Shown in pieces: positions 3,403 through 21,891 of a stretch of 40,658 nt of DNA. The notes beneath the pieces are model-generated. The model made no database searches and was not told the DNA's origin. It saw only the letters and a list, made by a program, of their open reading frames with translations. The position numbers and the translations under genes are program-made. Origin of the DNA: Candidatus Nanoarchaeia archaeon (GTDB taxonomy: Archaea > Nanobdellota > Nanobdellia > Pacearchaeales > GW2011-AR1); NCBI GenBank assembly GCA_035290465.1, contig DATDUI010000054.1, positions 1 to 40,658 of the forward strand. Direction: 5' to 3'. Positions within the stretch are counted from its first letter, which is position 1, and every line of letters starts with the position of its first letter.

Positions 3403-5313
3403 ATGGATGATACTAAAGAAATTAATGATTTCTTAAAAGTATGTAACGAAAAAGATTACCTTAAAAAAGATATAAATTCTTTTTTAATTGCAATAGATTT
3501 TGCAAAGAAAAATTTAGAAAACCGTAAAAGAGAATCAGGGGAATATATTTATCAAAATAATATAAACATCGGAATAATTTTAGTTAAATCCAATTTATCT
3601 AAAGAGATTGTGATTGCAGGACTTTTGTATGGTCTTGAAAAGTTAGTTATTGCAAAAGAAATTAAAGAAACTTTTGGAGAAGATATTGCAAGTCTTATTT
3701 TTGGGCAGTTACAATTTAATGAAGTTAAAAAAGGAAACAAAAATCTTGAAGCAGGAATAATTAGAAAAATTCTTTTGACCAGCCTATACGATGTAAGAAT
3801 TATTTTGGTCAAGCTTGCTGTAAAATTAGCAAGTTTGAATACTATTCAAGTCTTTGATGCAAAAAAGCAAAAAGAAATAGCAAAAGAAGTTCTCGAGATT
3901 TATGTGCCCTTGGCAGCAAGATTAGGTTTAGAATATATTAGGACAAGATTAGAATCATTAGCATTTAAGGTTGTTTATCCTAAACAATATTTAGAAATTT
4001 CAAATTTTTTTAAAGAAACATCTAAAGAAAGAGAAGAATTTGTAAAAAATTTAGTTGAAGAAATAATAATTTTATTAGATAAAAAAGTCGGAATAGTAAA
4101 AGTAAAAGGAAGGCATAAACAAATAAGAAGTATTTTTAAAAAGATTTTAGAAAAAGGAACATCATTAAAAGAACAGAAAGATCATTATGCTATAAGAATA
4201 ATTGTTAAAACTATAGACGATTGTTATAAAACTCTTGGAATTTTACACCAGAATTATGAACCATCGGAAGAAGGACTTAAAGATTATATAAATTCTCCTA
4301 AACCAAACGGATATCAATCAATTCATACAATCATAAAAATTCCAAAGGAAAAGAAGGAGGTGGAAGTTCAAATAAGAACACAGGATATGGATGAGTTTGC
4401 CGAAGAAGGAGGAGCATCTCATTGGAGTTATAAAAAACTGCAATCAGATAAAAATTTTGAAAAGAAAGTAGGATGGCTCAGAGAATTAATTGAATTCCAA
4501 AAAAATTCTTCAGAAAAAGATTTTATGAATGGATTAAAATTGGACCTGTTTGCAGATAAGATTTATTGTTATACTCCAAAAGGAGATGTTAGGGAATTAC
4601 CAAAAAATGCAACAGTATTAGACTTTGCATATAGTATTCATCAGGAAATTGGAGAAAAATCTATTGGAGGAAGGATAAACGGCAAATTTGTTTCATTAAA
4701 AGAACCTTTAAAAAATGGTGTAGTTGTGGAAATTGTAACAAACAAAAATCAAAGACCAAGAAGAGATTGGCTTAAATTTGTGATTTCCTCTCGAGCAAAA
4801 ACCAAAATTAAGCAAGGTGTAAAAAGATATGAATCAATTCCAATTACTCATGTATATACAGTTGAAAACAAAAAAGATGAAGATTATGACAATCTTGTTG
4901 AGTGCCCTGAATTTCCGAATGCTATTTTTTCTCTTGCAAAATGTTGTTCTCCTGTCCCAAAAGATTCTTTAATTGCAATAATGAAATCTTATAAAAACTT
5001 TTTAGTTCACAAAGAAAACTGTCCAAGGTTAAAAGGAAATATAAAAAATGCGATACCCGTTTTTTGGAAAAAAGTATTTAATAGTCCCTTAAAACTAAAA
5101 GTCTTTTCTGAAGACAGACCGGGAATTCTTGCAGATGTGCTTAATACAATCTCTCGGGAAGGATTTGTTGTAAAAAAAGCAACAGCAAAAATCGTAAGTG
5201 AAGGATTTACAGAATGTGGTTTTGTAATTATCCCAAAAGTTCTGGAAGACGTTTATGATATGGTCAATCGGGTGAAAAAAGTCAGAAGTGTGCGTAAAAT
5301 TTTCTTTGAATAA
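3403..5313 (+). CDS. Long RelA/SpoT homologue ((p)ppGpp synthetase; degenerate HD hydrolase domain, TGS and ACT-like C-terminus)
   Basis: Synthetase motifs are present: GRHKQIRSIFKKI, DHYAIRIIV, DYINSPKPNGYQSIHT, EVQIRTQDMDEFAEEGGASHWSYKK. The TGS block is IYCYTPKGDVRELPKNATVLDFAYSIH...INGKFVSL. HD-domain signature residues are replaced: HP becomes NN, LLHD..ED becomes LLYGLEK, ADRLHNM becomes AVKLASL. Confidence 0.9.
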   Translation: MDDTKEINDFLKVCNEKDYLKKDINSFLIAIDFAKKNLENRKRESGEYIYQNNINIGIILVKSNLSKEIVIAGLLYGLEKLVIAKEIKETFGEDIASLIFGQLQFNEVKKGNKNLEAGIIRKILLTSLYDVRIILVKLAVKLASLNTIQVFDAKKQKEIAKEVLEIYVPLAARLGLEYIRTRLESLAFKVVYPKQYLEISNFFKETSKEREEFVKNLVEEIIILLDKKVGIVKVKGRHKQIRSIFKKILEKGTSLKEQKDHYAIRIIVKTIDDCYKTLGILHQNYEPSEEGLKDYINSPKPNGYQSIHTIIKIPKEKKEVEVQIRTQDMDEFAEEGGASHWSYKKLQSDKNFEKKVGWLRELIEFQKNSSEKDFMNGLKLDLFADKIYCYTPKGDVRELPKNATVLDFAYSIHQEIGEKSIGGRINGKFVSLKEPLKNGVVVEIVTNKNQRPRRDWLKFVISSRAKTKIKQGVKRYESIPITHVYTVENKKDEDYDNLVECPEFPNAIFSLAKCCSPVPKDSLIAIMKSYKNFLVHKENCPRLKGNIKNAIPVFWKKVFNSPLKLKVFSEDRPGILADVLNTISREGFVVKKATAKIVSEGFTECGFVIIPKVLEDVYDMVNRVKKVRSVRKIFFE

Positions 5314-10973: not shown

Positions 10974-11120
10974 CTGTTTTTAAACACCTGTTTTTTTAAA
11001 AAAACACTGTTTATATAAAAATATCTCGATAAACAGGCTGTTTAAACAGGTTTAAACAGGCCAAACAACCAAATGCTTTCTCTAAATATTAATTACCTAA
11101 GGTTACCTAAGTGAATGAAG
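10974..11120. promoter_or_regulatory. Motif cluster between the 226-aa wHTH gene and the small membrane gene (motif A copies plus motif B copy 1)
   Basis: AACACCTGTTT lies at 10984-10994 and AAACAGGCTGTTTAAACAGGTTTAAACAGG at 11031-11060, which includes the 12-bp palindrome CTGTTTAAACAG at 11038-11049. TTACCTAAGGTTACCTAAGTGAATGAAG lies at 11093-11120. Confidence 0.7.
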
Positions 11121-11171
11121 CAGACAAAATAATTTGCAAAGGTTTATTAATTTTTATTTTTTTTGTCTTAT

Positions 11172-11453
11172 ATGAATAAAAATCTTCTTGATTATTTTGT
11201 TGGCGGAAAAAAATTTAAAAGCGAATTTAGAAGACAATTTCGATTATTAGTAGTAATAACTCTTGGATTTACAATCGCTTTTACCTGGCGTCAAACAGTA
11301 TTTGATATTTCACAATCCTTCATTAAGTTTATAACTCATATAGAAAATATATCTATTTCAAGCATTCTAACTTCAATTTTTATCACTCTTATAAGCATAT
11401 TTTTCATCTATTTAACTTCTCATTTCTTAAAAGACGGTGTTGAAAATTATTAG
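11172..11453 (+). CDS. Small two-helix membrane protein (paralog of 5345..5641)
   Basis: The ORF track starts at a TTG (11163); the first ATG is at 11172. Same architecture as the 98-aa protein. It is the only ORF inside the motif array. Confidence 0.55.
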   Translation: MNKNLLDYFVGGKKFKSEFRRQFRLLVVITLGFTIAFTWRQTVFDISQSFIKFITHIENISISSILTSIFITLISIFFIYLTSHFLKDGVENY

Positions 11454-11461
11454 TTAATTTA

Positions 11462-12420
11462 CTGTTTAAACAGGTGTTTAAAATAGAGATTTTATAAGGA
11501 TCTTTTTGTTAATTCTTCTGAAATTTAGTAAACTTTCTAAAAGTATTAATTATATATAAATTCATTAACCTAACCTAAGTGAATAAATTAGCTTTTTAAA
11601 CAGGTGTTTAAAACAAAGAAATTATCAATAATTTTTTTGAAGATACAAACTTTTTCTCTCGATTTTTTATTAATTTTATCTATTGGACTTAATCTTTTAT
11701 ATATTAATTTTAAGCGAAAATTTTAATATTTTGTCATAAATTTTTAATTGAAATTTATTACTTTTTCGTTGTTTAAACAGGTGTTTAACAATCAATAATC
11801 TCGAAGAAAGATTTATTTTATTTTTTATATAAAATTTAATTTTTTTATCTTTCTTAATATTTTATTTTTCTAAATAACTAACATAACCTAAGTGAATAAC
11901 CTTAAAAATTTTTCATTTGTTTAAACAGCCAATTTTATGCATTTATCTAGAGCATTCCTGAATTATATTTGAATATTTTTACTATTCTTTAATCCGATTC
12001 GTTAATCATAAGTAGATAATCTTTTATTTTGAATCTTCTAAACCTTTATGGATTTCACTAGCCTAACTTAAGTGGATGATACTAAAGATTTTTCATTATA
12101 ATTTATTAAAACAAACAGCTGTTTAAACATCCCATATTATATTTATCGAGAGAATCCCTAAAATTTATTCGAATAATTCGCTATTTACTTGAATTTATTT
12201 TCTAAATTTTTCTCTAATCATAAGTAAATAATTTTCTAAGCTTTTGTAGTTTTCATTAACCTAACCTTAGTGCACTATCTTTTGATCTTTTAATAAATTT
12301 TTTGAAAATTTTAAGTTTTAAAGGGCTAAAAATGCGTAAAATTTATATAGTTTTTCCAATAAGGCTATAATATAATTATTATAAGGGAACCCTTAATGGA
12401 AAAAACTCACCTAAGTGCAC
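11462..12420 (+). repeat. Array of alternating motif A (CTGTTTAAACAG / AAACAGGTGTTTAAA) and motif B (TTAACCTAACCTAAGTGAATAA), all co-oriented, ending in the recombinase 5' end
   Basis: Motif A: 11462-11482, 11595-11614, 11771-11790, 11919-11928, 12113-12129. Motif B: 11565-11586, 11885-11899, 12062-12077, 12256-12275, 12406-12420. The last two units (~11919-12112 and ~12113-12300) are ~190-bp tandem duplicates, which also share TAATCATAAGTA-ATAAT at 12003-12020 and 12215-12232. Confidence 0.8.
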
Positions 12421-13208
12421 GCTCTGGAACCTCTAAAATGGACTCTAATTCTCAAAATCATCCAAAAGTGGCGATTTATTCGCGTGTTTCAACTGAAGAG
12501 CAAGCAAAAGAAGGATTAAGCGTAGAAGCTCAGATAGATAAATGCAAATCTTTTTGTAATGCACGAGATTGGGAAGTCTTTAAAGTTTACAAAGACGCCG
12601 GATATTCTGCAGGTAGTTTAAATCGACCTGCTTTAGAACTTTTACTGCGTGATGCAGATGAAAACAAATTTAATATAATCTTAGTTTACAAAATTGATCG
12701 TTTCTCAAGAAAATTAAAAGATTTGATTATGGTTTTAGATGACTTAAAATCAAAAGATATTAACTTTACATCTGTTACTGAGCAAATTGATACTACCTCT
12801 GCAATGGGGGAAGCATTTTTTCAGATTATTGGTGTATTTGCCCAACTAGAGCGTGGAATGGTGAAGGAAAGAGTTGAACTAGCATTTGACAGAAAGATTC
12901 AATTTGGAGAAGCTTTATTTCGTGCTCCGCTAGGTTATACCTATCTCAACAAAAAACTTGTTCCAGACCTTGCAAATGCTCAAAAAATAATTGAAATTTT
13001 TGAGATGTGGTCCCAAAATATAAGTTACAAAGAAATTTGTGAAAAGTTCAACATTTCAACTTCAACCTTTTATCAAATTGTAAAAAATCCGGTTTATATA
13101 GGCAAAATTCAATATCGGGGCAAGCTTTATGATGGAAAACATAAGCCAATTATTGACCCTGAACTTTTTTATCAGGTAAATCCTCCTGATAAAACCTCTA
13201 AAGAATAA
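12396..13208 (+). CDS. Serine recombinase (resolvase catalytic domain plus recombinase DNA-binding domain; no zinc-ribbon or coiled-coil extension)
   Basis: VAIYSRVSTEEQ carries the catalytic Ser context. Also seen: YKDAGYSAGSLNRPAL, VYKIDRFSRK, FFQIIGVFAQLERGMVKERV, then PLGYTY..NKKLVP...YIGKIQY..GKHKPII. An alternative start is the ATG at 12438. Confidence 0.9.
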   Translation: MEKTHLSARSGTSKMDSNSQNHPKVAIYSRVSTEEQAKEGLSVEAQIDKCKSFCNARDWEVFKVYKDAGYSAGSLNRPALELLLRDADENKFNIILVYKIDRFSRKLKDLIMVLDDLKSKDINFTSVTEQIDTTSAMGEAFFQIIGVFAQLERGMVKERVELAFDRKIQFGEALFRAPLGYTYLNKKLVPDLANAQKIIEIFEMWSQNISYKEICEKFNISTSTFYQIVKNPVYIGKIQYRGKLYDGKHKPIIDPELFYQVNPPDKTSKE

Positions 13209-13245: not shown

Positions 13246-13629
13246 TTAATCTTTTCTTACGTAGCAATCTTTGCAAAGTACTGGTTTATTTCCACTTGGT
13301 TTAAACGGAACTTGGCACTTTTTGTTACATTTAGCGCAAGTTGCATCGTACATTTCTCGATTACTTCTGAAATTGTCTCTTCCGCCACCAAAGCTTCTTC
13401 CACCACTACCACCACTGAAGCTTCTTCCACCACCGCCAAAACTTCTTTTAGGTTTATTTTTCCTAAAACAATCTTGACATCTAACTGGTTTACCTTCTGT
13501 GGGTTTAAATGGTACTTCACATTGAGCACCGCAATCAGTGCATTTAGCTTTGTACATTTCTCTTTCAGAAGAATCCCTCATGGATTCCTGTGTTTGCTCG
13601 ATATCTTGAGCAATTAAATCGTCTGCCAT
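13246..13629 (-). CDS. Double CxxC-x17-CxxC zinc-finger protein with a GGS/RGG-like linker (probable nucleic-acid binding)
   Basis: Two copies of EMY.A.C..C...C.VPFKP...KPV.C..C. I counted the spacing as CTDC-17-CQDC. The linker is RSFGGGGRSFSGGSGGRSFGGGRD. Confidence 0.8.
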   Translation of the reverse strand: MADDLIAQDIEQTQESMRDSSEREMYKAKCTDCGAQCEVPFKPTEGKPVRCQDCFRKNKPKRSFGGGGRSFSGGSGGRSFGGGRDNFRSNREMYDATCAKCNKKCQVPFKPSGNKPVLCKDCYVRKD

Positions 13630-13787: not shown

Positions 13788-13827
13788 GGTGTTTTAAACA
13801 GCTGTTTAAACAGCAAAACGGTGTTTT
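13788..13827. promoter_or_regulatory. Overlapping 12-bp palindromes AAACAGCTGTTT / CTGTTTAAACAG immediately upstream of the 180-aa gene
   Basis: GGTGTTTTAAACAGCTGTTTAAACAGCAAAACGGTGTTTT. The palindromes lie at 13796-13807 and 13802-13813, 17-34 nt upstream of the ATG at 13830. One more CTGTTTAAACAG lies at 13935-13946 inside the gene. Confidence 0.65.
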
Positions 13828-13829
13828 TT

Positions 13830-14363
13830 ATGAAAGAATGCATTAAATGTGGTTATCAATCAGAACAAAATAAAGAAAAATTTCAGGAAATTCTTTGTGA
13901 TATTTGTTATGCATTTGCCCCCAGTAGTGAAGGGCTGTTTAAACAGTATATACAAGATAAAACCAGCTGGAAATTGTTAGAAACATTTAGAAAACATTCA
14001 GAATTACGAGGAGAAACACAAAAAAAAGGCATGATCAAAAAAGCAATTGACGGAAATTTGATGTCCCGTGCCCCATTTGGTTATAACATTGAAAATAAAA
14101 AATTAATCCCTGCCGGGAATTCAAAAGAAGTAGAAGACATCTTTGAAGAATTTTTAAACTCAGGAATTAGTTTAACGCAATTATCAAAAAAGCATGGTCT
14201 ATCTGTCAACGGTCTAAAAAAAATATTAACCAATTTTACTTATTTAGGGAAGATTAAATTCAATAATCAAACACATGAAGGAACACACAAGCCCCTTATA
14301 TCTTCAATATTATTTAATCATGTTCAGGATAAACTGGAAAAATTAGGAATAAAGATTGTTTAA
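13830..14363 (+). CDS. Zinc-ribbon plus recombinase-domain protein lacking the serine catalytic domain
   Basis: The ORF track starts at a GTG (13821); the ATG at 13830 is preferred. The N-terminus has CIKC...CDIC. The C-terminal APFGYNIENKKLIP...YLGKIKF..GTHKPLI aligns with residues of the 270-aa recombinase. Confidence 0.75.
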   Translation: MKECIKCGYQSEQNKEKFQEILCDICYAFAPSSEGLFKQYIQDKTSWKLLETFRKHSELRGETQKKGMIKKAIDGNLMSRAPFGYNIENKKLIPAGNSKEVEDIFEEFLNSGISLTQLSKKHGLSVNGLKKILTNFTYLGKIKFNNQTHEGTHKPLISSILFNHVQDKLEKLGIKIV

Positions 14364-14485
14364 AATACGAATGTTTTTATACTTCTGACCACTATTAAAA
14401 TTGTGAAGCCTTATGATGAGAGGTATCTAAATCTTGAACATTTCTTTAGAAAGAATTATTTAAAAATTTTAAGGAGGATTTATAA

Positions 14486-15607
14486 ATGAAAGATAAATCC
14501 CTTAAAAAATTAATTCAAAAAGATTATGCCAATTGCTTAGCGAGATATCGTTTACCGATGGATGAAAATGTTAAAGAAGCATTAATCCCGCAAACTATTC
14601 TTGGTCATGCCATAGAAGGTCATGCAACTTTTTTTCCTAATCATTATCCCAATATAACTATCGACGAGATTTTTGAATCTCTGGGTTTTAATCCTCTTGA
14701 AAAAAGGAAATTCAGAGAAGATTTAATTTATGAAGTAAAAAATTGTTTAGAAGATTTAATCTCTGGAAAGATTGATAAATTAGTTAATAGTCGTGGAAAC
14801 CCCATTTTAGGAGCAACTTTCTTGAAAGACCATCGACTTTCTTTATCAAAAGAAACTTTTAAAGGCGCAGCTTTAGCCGGAAGAATGGATTCTGATATTT
14901 GGAGGAATCAAACTCTTTGTGATTATCCATTAACGTTAAAAGGAAATATCCTCGAAATAGGATTTGGAAAAGAATATGTCATTGATACAAACAAACTAAA
15001 CGATTTTAAACTTACCATTGAAGATTTAGCCGAAAAAGATCATTCAAAGATGATTGATTTATATCGGGCTGGGGGATTAATTGTGGAAAAAAGCGGTTAT
15101 TTAAAAGGACTTGAGAATGTTTTTATCCGAACAAATTCTGGCCTAGGTTGTTGTGATGATGCTTGTTTAATTGCAATCGGAAGGCTCCATAGTCCTGATG
15201 CATTGCTTTTAGCTTGGGCAATCGATGCAGTGGACACTTATTCTAAATGCACTATAAACTCTGTTGAAGGGGGATTTGATGAATGGCTTGGAAAAGAACT
15301 TGAAAAAAAATGGTCTGAAAAATATAATGAAGAATTAGTTACAAAAGAAGAAACAACAGAGATAATTTACCTTGGTGCAAAGAGAAACGATCCAGCAATT
15401 ACCTTTTCATCTTCACACAGAAGGTTTAACGAAATGGGTTTAAATCAATTATATCCAACAATTTTAAATCATTATAACTTTGCAAAGGATGGAACAAGAT
15501 CTCCAAAATATTCTTTAGGATTTGATCAAACATCCAGCAAACATTTTTATAAAATCATGGAAGAAAGGTTTGAGTTATTTGGAAAAGGAAGTCTGAAAAA
15601 ACAGTAA
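14486..15607 (+). CDS. Conserved hypothetical protein, tandem paralog A (family not recognised)
   Basis: 373-aa ORF with a strong SD-like AAGGAGG 7-8 nt upstream. Long blocks are shared with paralog B: LIPQTI-GHA-EGH, LSKETFKGAALAGRMD, GLGCCDDA, DAVDTYSKCT, EGGFDEW, IIYLGAK, SSSHRRFNE, QLYPTILNH. Confidence 0.85.
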   Translation: MKDKSLKKLIQKDYANCLARYRLPMDENVKEALIPQTILGHAIEGHATFFPNHYPNITIDEIFESLGFNPLEKRKFREDLIYEVKNCLEDLISGKIDKLVNSRGNPILGATFLKDHRLSLSKETFKGAALAGRMDSDIWRNQTLCDYPLTLKGNILEIGFGKEYVIDTNKLNDFKLTIEDLAEKDHSKMIDLYRAGGLIVEKSGYLKGLENVFIRTNSGLGCCDDACLIAIGRLHSPDALLLAWAIDAVDTYSKCTINSVEGGFDEWLGKELEKKWSEKYNEELVTKEETTEIIYLGAKRNDPAITFSSSHRRFNEMGLNQLYPTILNHYNFAKDGTRSPKYSLGFDQTSSKHFYKIMEERFELFGKGSLKKQ

Positions 15608-15760
15608 CTGTTTTAGAGTACTAACAAAAACGCAATATTTTTAAATATCTAAATTTTGTAAGAATATGTTGGAAAAGATTAACACTTCCCGAAAATCTTC
15701 TGTCGATAATAAATTTCTTATTAAGAATAATCTTTTTGTATCTTTAAGGGGGAAAGTTAA

Positions 15761-16876
15761 ATGACTTCTAAGTTAATCGATTCTTTAATAAAGAAAGATT
15801 ATGAATTAATTTACAATTCTAAATTACCCTTACAAGAAAGTGCAAAACAAGTTTTAATCCCGCAGACAATTCAGGGTCATGCACGTGAAGGTCATATGAG
15901 TTTTAAAAAAAATCCTATGGATTTAACAATGGATGAAATCTTTATTTCCCTTGGAATGAACCCTTTTGAAAAAAGACGGTTCAGAGAAGGTTTAATTTAT
16001 GAAGCAAAAGAATGTTTAGAAAATTTGGTTTCAGGCAGAATAAATAAACTAGTTACTAAAAAAGGTCAGCCTCTTTTTGGAGCTTATTTCTTATTGGATC
16101 AGGAGATTGATTTATCCAAAGAAACTTTCAAAGGTGCAGCTTTAGCCGGAAGAATGGATACTGATTATTGGAGAAAAAGAACCGTAGATATCTATAAAAA
16201 AACCTTGGATAATTCTGATTTAATCATCGGAGGAGGAATGGAATATCCTGTAAATCTCCTGCAATTAGCTAAACAGGGTTTGGAATTAAAAAATTTGTCC
16301 GAAGAAGAACATGATCCCAAAACAATCAATGAATACTATGAAAAAGAAATTTTATGTGAAAATGGTTCTTATAGTGACGGAATACAAAATACTTTTATAA
16401 GACATCGTTTAGGTCTTGGTTGTTGTGATGATGCAAGCTTAATTTCCATCGGTAAAATTCATGGTCCAAGTGCGTTACTTCTCGGTTGGGTTGTTGATGC
16501 TGTTGATACTTATTCCAAATGTACCTTAAATTCTATAGAAGGAGGATTTGATGAATGGGTTGGAGAAAGTTTAGAAAAACTTTGGAAAAAGAAAAATGGA
16601 TCTAACCTTATAACTCCTGAAGAAACAATGGAAATCATTTACCTTGGTGCAAAAAATAACTTCCCTAAAATTAATATGTCTTCTTCACACAGAAGATTTA
16701 ATGAGATTGGTAAAGATCAATTATATCCAACAATTTTGAATCATTTAGCCTATGTAAAACAAGGTATTATCCCTCAAGAATATCCTTTGGGGTTCCAAAA
16801 AATACCTAGTACAGAATTTTATAATTCAATAAATCAACGGTTTGAATTATTTGAAAAAAGTTTAAATTTTGATTAA
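15761..16876 (+). CDS. Conserved hypothetical protein, tandem paralog B (family not recognised)
   Basis: 371-aa ORF with SD-like AGGGGGAA upstream. By eye it is roughly half identical to paralog A, including a 24-nt identical DNA block (14867-14890 = 16136-16159). Confidence 0.85.
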   Translation: MTSKLIDSLIKKDYELIYNSKLPLQESAKQVLIPQTIQGHAREGHMSFKKNPMDLTMDEIFISLGMNPFEKRRFREGLIYEAKECLENLVSGRINKLVTKKGQPLFGAYFLLDQEIDLSKETFKGAALAGRMDTDYWRKRTVDIYKKTLDNSDLIIGGGMEYPVNLLQLAKQGLELKNLSEEEHDPKTINEYYEKEILCENGSYSDGIQNTFIRHRLGLGCCDDASLISIGKIHGPSALLLGWVVDAVDTYSKCTLNSIEGGFDEWVGESLEKLWKKKNGSNLITPEETMEIIYLGAKNNFPKINMSSSHRRFNEIGKDQLYPTILNHLAYVKQGIIPQEYPLGFQKIPSTEFYNSINQRFELFEKSLNFD

Positions 16877-16898: not shown

Positions 16899-17318
16899 CT
16901 ATCTCTTAGAAGCCTGTCTTTTACTTCTAGCTTTTGAATCACCGGGTTTATATGCTTCTTTTCGTCTAACGTCAGCTACAAGTAAATTTCTGTCATATTC
17001 CAAATATGCCTTAGTTAATTCTTCAGATTTTGTAAATTCAACTATCCCTTTAGCAAGTGCAAGACGTGCAGCTTCGATTTGTCCTTTATCTCCTCCACCT
17101 TTAACCTCGATGTTAGCATTAAAATTAATCTCACCTAAAACATGCAAAGCAATTCTTAATGGTTCTTCGATTTTAAGTTTATCAAAAATGTGTAGATAGT
17201 TATAATTTTTGTCATTAATCATTATTTGACCTTTGCCTTCTGTCAAAACTGCTCTAGCGACAGCTCTTTTTCTCTTTCCAGATTTAACCACTTTTTTGTA
17301 TTTTGTTTCAATTGCCAT
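16899..17318 (-). CDS. rps9: 30S ribosomal protein S9 (uS9)
   Basis: GKRKRAVARA is present, and the C-terminal KPGDSKARSKRQASKR is typical of uS9. Confidence 0.93.
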   Translation of the reverse strand: MAIETKYKKVVKSGKRKRAVARAVLTEGKGQIMINDKNYNYLHIFDKLKIEEPLRIALHVLGEINFNANIEVKGGGDKGQIEAARLALAKGIVEFTKSEELTKAYLEYDRNLLVADVRRKEAYKPGDSKARSKRQASKR

Positions 17319-21804: not shown

Positions 21805-21891
21805 GGATATAATATGAAATCAATTTAGAAATGAAAGAATTTAAAGATACTTCCTCTAAAAAAATTGCTTCAAGCAATTAAACATAAATCC

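Follow-up and report, generated by a model that had tools for sequence, protein, structure and literature searches.

Two adjacent open reading frames of a nanoarchaeal genome encode members of a protein family that, judged from database searches and a structural model, is genuinely uncharacterised and has a predicted new fold, new meaning relative to PDB and BFVD, the two sets searched. They lie in a 40,658 bp stretch of DNA (contig DATDUI010000054.1, positions 1 to 40,658, assembly GCA_035290465.1, Candidatus Nanoarchaeia archaeon), the whole of which we refer to as the window, and are called here paralog 1 (14486..15607, + strand) and paralog 2 (15761..16876, + strand). Comparative analysis indicates that the pair occupies a gene junction that is otherwise invariant, and that one species carries either this pair or a divergent single gene at the same site. 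We favour, with a probability of about 0.4, the reading that these are stand-alone metal-dependent phosphoesterases or phosphotransferases acting on nucleotides or nucleic acids, and that they are dispensable accessories. An earlier note on this DNA, made from its letters alone, had drawn attention to the pair.

Neither paralog matches any Pfam or NCBIfam family (0 families at E<=1), and neither has a hidden Markov model (HMM) match in PADLOC (anti-phage defence) or in PHROGs (phage families). No match was found among PDB sequences, the best phmmer E-value being 0.52 and the best with a 71-sequence profile 0.1. A word-indexed homologue search returned only 5–6 proteins. When 1.84 billion representatives were searched exhaustively with an HMM, however, 240 clusters (at 50% identity) were recovered at E<=1e-3, 103 of them at E<=1e-30, so the family is, by its sequences, real and diverse; paralogs 1 and 2 match the family HMM at E-values of 1e-130 and 1e-128. 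No paper mentioning named family members was found in the literature. The AlphaFold2 model built from a 71-sequence alignment has a pLDDT of 95.9 and a pTM of 0.93, with 5/5 models above 95. Its predicted fold is alpha-rich, and a Foldseek search against PDB (best E 1.8, TM 0.10) and BFVD (best E 0.22) gives no fold neighbour. The family had been called unrecognised in the earlier note, and the profile, structure-model and fold searches, all named beforehand as checks, likewise gave no known family.

Accessory domains are rare. A Pfam scan of 71 diverse members found a credible domain in only four, in each case C-terminal CBS, and these fusions are limited to a bacterial subgroup; the CBS pair is absent from the window paralogs by the same criterion. 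CBS domains are adenine-nucleotide sensors. Ten long members were scanned for other fused domains and have none, the extra length consisting of N-terminal extensions and insertions. We also considered whether the proteins might be PCNA clients, and rejected this: the C-terminal PIP box Qxx[LIVM]xx[FYW][FYW] is present in 4/170 members in its strict form and 12/170 in a relaxed form, and in neither window paralog.

Conservation was computed over 158 distinct full-length members, which are only about 25% identical. D135, R140, D224, D247 and D250 are conserved in all of them; G161, G221, T251 and D265 are conserved at 99%, S310 at 98%, G40 and G219 at 97%, K254 at 96%, D225 and G45 at 94%, and G127 at 93%, with H46, R215, R312, H329 and Y355 following at 84–87%. 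The whole invariant set is kept in paralog 1, in paralog 2 and in the 407-aa alternative allele described below, and in the AlphaFold model the conserved residues are located at helix ends and Gly-rich loops. Because the Asp cluster is accompanied by Arg, Lys, Ser and Thr, we infer a divalent-metal site for phosphoryl transfer or hydrolysis, and regard it as a convincing candidate. The constellation D135, R140, GxG161, G219xG221xxD224-D225, D247xxD250-T251xxK254, D265 and S310, more loosely joined by H46, R215, R312, H329 and Y355, would hold a divalent cation (Mg2+/Mn2+) and form a centre at which a phosphate ester is bound and either hydrolysed or transferred.

The earlier note had singled out His, Cys and Asp clusters as metal-binding or catalytic sites, and this stands in part. 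Such a site is plausible given the invariant Asp, Arg, Thr, Lys and Ser residues, but the Cys pair of the CCDD motif is not conserved (the family consensus is GxGxSDD), H46 and H329 reach only 84–85%, and H41 is often Arg. A resemblance to the R/K/H/R/H/Y set of tyrosine recombinases was considered and set aside, with no Pfam or Foldseek support. It is very improbable that the protein is a non-catalytic structural or regulatory one, with charged residues conserved for folding or binding alone. The lack of a match to known catalytic motifs would agree with this, but five invariant Asp, with invariant Arg, Thr, Lys and Ser, placed at helix ends and in Gly-rich loops and kept at ~25% identity, are what an active site usually looks like.

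The window is archaeal, with a GC content of ~29%, and encodes ribosomal proteins S9, L13, L18e and L15e, PolD DP2, gyrase and ATP-dependent ligases. Paralog 1 has 373 aa (42.5 kDa, pI 6.4) and paralog 2 has 371 aa (42.4 kDa, pI 5.8). The two had been judged by eye to be about half identical; BLASTP gives 55% identity and 69% positives over 368 residues (E 5e-143). All of the sequence blocks that had been quoted are present in both proteins, namely LIPQTI.GHA.EGH, NP.EKR.FRE.LIYE, LSKETFKGAALAGRMD.D.WR, GLGCCDDA.LI.IG, DAVDTYSKCT.NS.EGGFDEW, EIIYLGAK and SSSHRRFNE.G..QLYPTILNH. The variable middle segment that had been described is evident as well, with residues 151-210 only 30% identical, compared to about 70% in the conserved blocks (67–77% at residues 61-90, 121-150 and 211-270). 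Both proteins are predicted to be soluble, in agreement with the earlier reading: neither has a transmembrane helix or signal peptide as judged by hydropathy and N-terminal polarity, the Kyte-Doolittle maximum over a 19-residue window being 1.31–1.39 and the N-termini polar.

Shine-Dalgarno-like (SD-like) sites precede both genes, as had been observed: AAGGAGG (14471..14477, + strand) 8 nt 5' of the paralog 1 ATG, and AAGGGGGAA (15746..15754, + strand) 6 nt 5' of that of paralog 2. SD matches of at least 5 nt occur in about 5/37 window open reading frames, and most others look leaderless. The earlier note took them to suggest high expression; from their sequence, these sites are taken to indicate leadered mRNAs only. 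We also note a 13-nt direct repeat, TATCTAAATCTTG / TATCTAAATTTTG, at 14424-14436 and 15646-15658, 62 and 115 nt before the ATGs, which could act as a promoter or regulatory element common to both genes.

The paralogs are, on sequence divergence, old tandem duplicates. The identical 24-nt block GCAGCTTTAGCCGGAAGAATGGAT at 14867..14890 and 16136..16159 (both + strand), reported earlier, is confirmed and is the longest word common to both genes, but the recent duplication or gene conversion that it had been taken to suggest is not supported. Nucleotide identity is 63% overall and also 63% at third positions of identical residues, and the block encodes AALAGRMD, which includes the invariant D135, so the identity reflects this invariant motif and not recent conversion. 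In the family tree each paralog has a branch of ~0.43 substitutions/site, with the topology (G001 allele, (paralog 1, paralog 2)) and support of 96/85 and 96/84; here G and L numbers denote genomes and contigs, the window genome being G000. Both paralogs are already present in strain L073, the DNA of which is 5.5% diverged (94.5% nucleotide identity).

When compared with L073, paralog 1 has a ratio of nonsynonymous to synonymous divergence (dN/dS) of 0.101 and paralog 2 one of 0.100; their dS values are 0.16 and 0.22, within the range of 0.07–0.32 seen in flanking genes. Both copies are thus functional, under purifying selection and inherited together with their flanks. Through the variable segment at 150-210, the two may have come to differ in specificity or may assemble into a heteromer.

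The cassette (14421..16872) extends from the promoter or leader of paralog 1 to near the end of paralog 2, and is placed between two conserved anchors. On its left is RecFrag180 (13821..14363, + strand; 97.8% aa identity in the same-genus genome G001), which has a Zn-ribbon and a Recombinase domain (PF07508) without the catalytic resolvase domain. On its right is the gene for ribosomal protein S9 (16899..17318, - strand; PF00380; 99.3% in G001), which heads an S9-L13-L18e group and is convergent with paralog 2. Among metagenome loci anchored on RecFrag180, this gene is directly beside S9 in all 62 that are informative, and the same is true in five relatives' genomes; across all of these the RecFrag180-S9 gap is 7–1167 bp and no family gene lies between. 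A serine recombinase of 270 aa (SerRec270; 12396..13208, + strand; Resolvase and Recombinase domains), a Zn-finger gene, orf226 and HTH258 are also conserved at the relatives' locus; the serine recombinase, being present in relatives without the family, is not cassette-specific.

Since RecFrag180 and S9 adjoin in relatives that lack the family, the gene arrangement identifies the recombinase module not as a mobile island but as a block of synteny conserved from ancient times, and the paralog pair as an insertion, specific to the genus, at a RecFrag180|S9 junction that is otherwise invariant. The earlier suggestion that the pair is the cargo of a recombinase island therefore survives only as far as the insertion is concerned. 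A serine-recombinase mobile island was rejected, as the recombinase genes are kept beside S9 in cargo-free relatives and no att-like repeats flanking the cassette were found.

Several features of the recombinase genes deserve mention in their own right. RecFrag180 and the 270-aa protein have the look of a large serine recombinase that was split or domesticated and has been retained as a core gene, and a 270-aa protein with resolvase and recombinase domains is found near RecFrag180 in several loci of the lineage. With <=1 mismatch allowed, the palindrome CTGTTTAAACAG is present 8 times where 0.25 copies would be expected, and it is confined to the surroundings of the recombinase genes (within 11038-12130, and at 13802-13813 and 13935-13946): six copies are in an AT-rich region 5' of the serine recombinase gene, and the other two are on either side of the RecFrag180 start. 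A second repeated word, AACCTAAGTGAATAA, accompanies it, and the array could be a recombinase or regulator binding array. Apart from the cassette, poor conservation between G000 and G001 is seen in this region only at ~11589-12230. At 13246-13629 (- strand) is a gene for a 127-aa protein with two treble-clef zinc fingers (PF23477) and a GGGRSF-repeat linker, 97% identical in G001 and more weakly conserved in two of the five relatives examined.

G001 and the window share flanking DNA that is 90–95% identical on both sides (flanking proteins 96–99%), but blastn homology ends at ~14420 and restarts at ~16855. The intervening site in G001 contains a single 407-aa gene, 42–43% identical to either paralog. 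Contig L073 carries paralogs 1 and 2 in flanks that are 99.8–99.9% identical to those of G001, with no homology across the cassette; given such near-identical flanks, the sequences place two cassette types within one species. Both are common in metagenomes, the exact paralog 1 protein occurring in 28 collection blocks and the 407-aa allele in 29, at the same locus in every place listed. Because dN/dS and dS are ordinary, rapid in-situ divergence of the 42% allele is excluded, which on these data leaves horizontal replacement or a balanced polymorphism of long standing.

A further strain difference was observed downstream. A gene for Ku (PF02735, 250 aa; 18650-19402 in L073) is present in strains L073 and L076 between SOD and a LigD-like 306-aa ATP-dependent ligase, and together with the ligase gives a non-homologous end joining pair in a DPANN archaeon. 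At the corresponding place in the window (~21805-21865) the Ku gene is missing and the ligase is kept (316 aa, TTG start).

The two genes are the only family copies in the window genome (1.15 Mb, 74% complete), and among 60 relatives the family was found only in G001, as a single copy. Its hosts are DPANN archaea, including Candidatus Woesearchaeota, and a few bacteria, among them Thermodesulfobium and bacteria known as metagenome-assembled genomes. It is present in 40/401 genomes of the phylum (about 10%), nearly always in single copy and patchily by taxonomic family, with 11/42 genomes in the family labelled f20, 7/15 in f32, 3/3 in f29 and 3/8 in f34. The family tree mostly tracks taxonomic families. 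In f20 the mean identity of the family gene is 0.43 and that of Rad50 0.45, with no outlier pair; this divergence in step with Rad50 argues for vertical descent with loss and not recent spread, and homing-like recent spread in f20 was discarded accordingly. Pfam detects no LAGLIDADG, HNH or GIY-YIG domains in the paralogs. In the window lineage, given the cassette dimorphism, homing-endonuclease-like spread may have occurred.

These patterns bear on an alternative that we consider unlikely, namely that this is a conflict or defence-type cassette or other frequency-dependent accessory, encoding an effector (a nuclease, or a nucleotide-depleting enzyme) kept as divergent interchangeable alleles in hotspots. 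The patchy distribution, confined within its own taxonomic family to the window's genus, the precise insertion between conserved genes, the tandem duplication, and the within-species dimorphism of 42%-identical alleles in 99.8%-identical flanks are all as expected for such a cassette, and in f20 the gene sits in a variable slot that is also used by PhoH-like and unknown genes. Counting against it are the lack of PADLOC and PHROG matches, neighbours that are housekeeping genes and not defence islands, a dN/dS of 0.10 without raised divergence between L073 and G000, the parallel with Rad50 in f20, which gives no sign of recent transfer, and a tree that mostly follows taxonomy.

We compared gene neighbourhoods at about 45 family loci and found no neighbour gene conserved across lineages. 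There being no universal partner gene, the protein probably works alone, and would act without a dedicated partner gene. Genes of DNA or nucleotide metabolism nonetheless turn up repeatedly, in lineages independent of one another. In f20 the housekeeping Rad50 gene, present in sole copy, is 3–184 bp upstream on the same strand; in G179 (contig L052) a herA-mre11 operon is divergent from the family gene, in L025 HerA is convergent with it, and in two more lineages HerA is 4–6 genes away. The small and large RFC subunits are downstream on two contigs, DnaE is 80 bp upstream in one bacterium, and Endo_dU, HhH-GPD, PolB, ligase and a Cas4-like nuclease are near the gene in some lineages. On the nucleotide side, the most distant clades, f29 and f34, carry a divergent PNP gene at position -1, which in f29 has APRT beside it; TK, RNR and NrdR are near the gene in some lineages; a YjeF-type NAD(P)HX repair enzyme is 25 bp upstream in Thermodesulfobium; and DeoC and GalK are near it in one bacterium.

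Two of these loci have features of their own. In G179, a distant lineage, the family gene beside the herA-mre11 operon consists of two adjoining reading frames (L052:5890-8004) of 328 and 371 aa, one corresponding to the N-terminal and the other to the C-terminal part of the profile, and is either a frameshift or pseudogene or a natural split. In f20, the slot between Rad50 and DUF1385 (contigs L157-L172) contains the family gene, is empty (one genome), or contains a PhoH-like ATPase gene (PF02562) preceded by small unknown genes, or else other unannotated genes of 220–250 aa.

The favoured reading, in which the substrate would be a nucleotide or nucleic acid and the protein a dispensable add-on to DNA or nucleotide metabolism, draws on the invariant core, the predicted solubility, the single-copy gene, the purifying selection, the DNA- and nucleotide-leaning neighbours and the CBS fusions. 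Several observations weigh against it. By a rough count, DNA and nucleotide genes are about 2-fold over-represented among the neighbours, a modest signal, and in many lineages the genes nearby are unrelated: CysRS, a MiaB-like radical SAM protein, Lon, a glycosyltransferase, MscS, the thermosome and ZPR1. Of 71 f20 genomes, 68 have Rad50 but only 13 the family, and the Rad50|DUF1385 slot is a variable hotspot, so that the adjacency may be non-functional; an obligate Rad50 partner is rejected on these grounds. PNP occurs in 27/39 family-positive and 174/361 family-negative genomes, a weak co-occurrence that leads us to reject PNP dependence too, and it was not detected in the window genome. Finally, no biochemical or structural homology backs any specific chemistry.

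A more ambitious version, which we think improbable as a whole, is that the family is a new enzyme superfamily with an unseen fold and a penta-aspartate metal centre, acting on DNA ends or nucleotide pools, and that the locus is an exchangeable, strain-variable DPANN cassette serving as a novel type of accessory genome-maintenance or immunity module.

The nucleotide-related neighbours could also be those of a small-molecule enzyme unrelated to DNA, such as a phosphomutase, phosphatase or kinase of sugar-phosphate metabolism or nucleoside salvage, with S310 as phospho-acceptor, the Asp cluster binding Mg2+, and adenylate regulation in the CBS-fused forms. The CBS fusions, the divergent PNP with APRT alongside, the YjeF-type enzyme, DeoC and GalK, and TK, RNR and NrdR are all consistent with this, and the Gly-rich loops and the S-S-S-H-R-R loop would fit phosphate binding. 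We nevertheless hold it to be doubtful, as no pathway neighbour is consistent, PNP is undetected in 12/39 family-positive genomes as well as in the window genome, and allele replacement and dispensable patchiness are unusual for core salvage enzymes. The likeness to phosphohexomutases that would lend it weight is one of motifs, and their fold is no match.

The DNA-related neighbours suggest instead a dedicated extra component of the HerA-Mre11-Rad50-NurA end-resection machinery, for example an analogue of the NurA nuclease. The gene adjoins Rad50 (f20), HerA (L025) and herA-mre11 (L052) in three independent lineages, HerA is close in two more, and the window genome encodes Rad50-like and HerA-like proteins. 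This is, however, less probable than either the conflict-type cassette or the small-molecule enzyme. The family genes are unlinked to the Rad50-like and HerA-like genes in the window genome; in f20 Rad50 is near-universal and the family present in 18%, with the Rad50-adjacent slot a hotspot; and Foldseek shows a fold unlike that of NurA or Mre11. Moreover, NurA is found in 9/39 family-positive and 119/361 family-negative genomes, which is not complementary, and a separate Metallophos (Mre11-like) protein of 400–460 aa is retained in 5/5 f20 genomes examined.

Elsewhere in the window, a long RelA/SpoT homologue (3403-5313, + strand; 636 aa, HD_4, RelA_SpoT, TGS and ACT domains) is encoded. Similar-looking proteins of 627–674 aa, as judged by eye, are present in several f20 genomes (cluster c10, e.g. 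L168:1030-3051). To our knowledge, (p)ppGpp synthetase/hydrolases are uncommon in archaea.

With several hundred clusters, a confident model and a candidate active site, the family is a clean target for new enzyme fold and chemistry. Its DPANN hosts have reduced genomes rich in unassigned genes and a DNA and nucleotide economy that is salvage-dependent. The locus itself is an unusually sharp natural experiment, with a precise insertion, two divergent cassettes in 99.8%-identical backgrounds and duplicates under purifying selection, and it offers a route to ask what selects such genes in uncultivated archaea. Should the function prove ordinary, the value would be limited to the annotation of one further family.

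Comparison with known systems reveals likenesses to each of several, and differences from all of them. NurA (PF09376) resembles the family in its size (330–450 aa), its acidic metal-dependent site and the position of its gene, often beside herA, rad50 or mre11 in archaea, but it has an RNase H-like alpha/beta fold with PDB structures, whereas the family model is alpha-rich and has no sequence, profile or Foldseek match to it. NurA co-occurs with the family in 9 genomes, and we have rejected the NurA analogue for its lack of phyletic complementarity and of a fold match. Mre11/SbcD (PF00149) is also of about 400 aa and is the usual gene partner of Rad50, and in f20 the family gene is in a place where Mre11 might be expected; the family has no Metallophos motifs or match, and an Mre11 replacement is rejected because f20 genomes keep their Mre11-like protein elsewhere.

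HD-domain dNTPases (dGTPase/SAMHD1) are all-alpha enzymes with Asp/His metal centres that act alone on nucleotides, some being accessory or defence proteins and some nucleotide-regulated. The family is likewise alpha-helical, but has no H..HD..D motif, Pfam HD match or Foldseek match to PDB HD structures. In the alpha-D-phosphohexomutases a phosphoserine 'T-A-S-H-N' loop is combined with a 'D-x-D-x-D-R' Mg loop, and the family similarly has a Ser-His loop (S310-H311) and an Asp cluster, with sugar- or nucleoside-phosphate neighbours in some lineages; the fold and domain count differ and there is no sequence or structure match, so that the likeness is one of motif only. The locus itself is reminiscent of variable accessory or defence hotspots, with which it shares precise presence or absence, alternative occupants and divergent alleles between near-identical strains. 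It differs from these in that it is without a known defence signature and is occupied by one homologous family under purifying selection.

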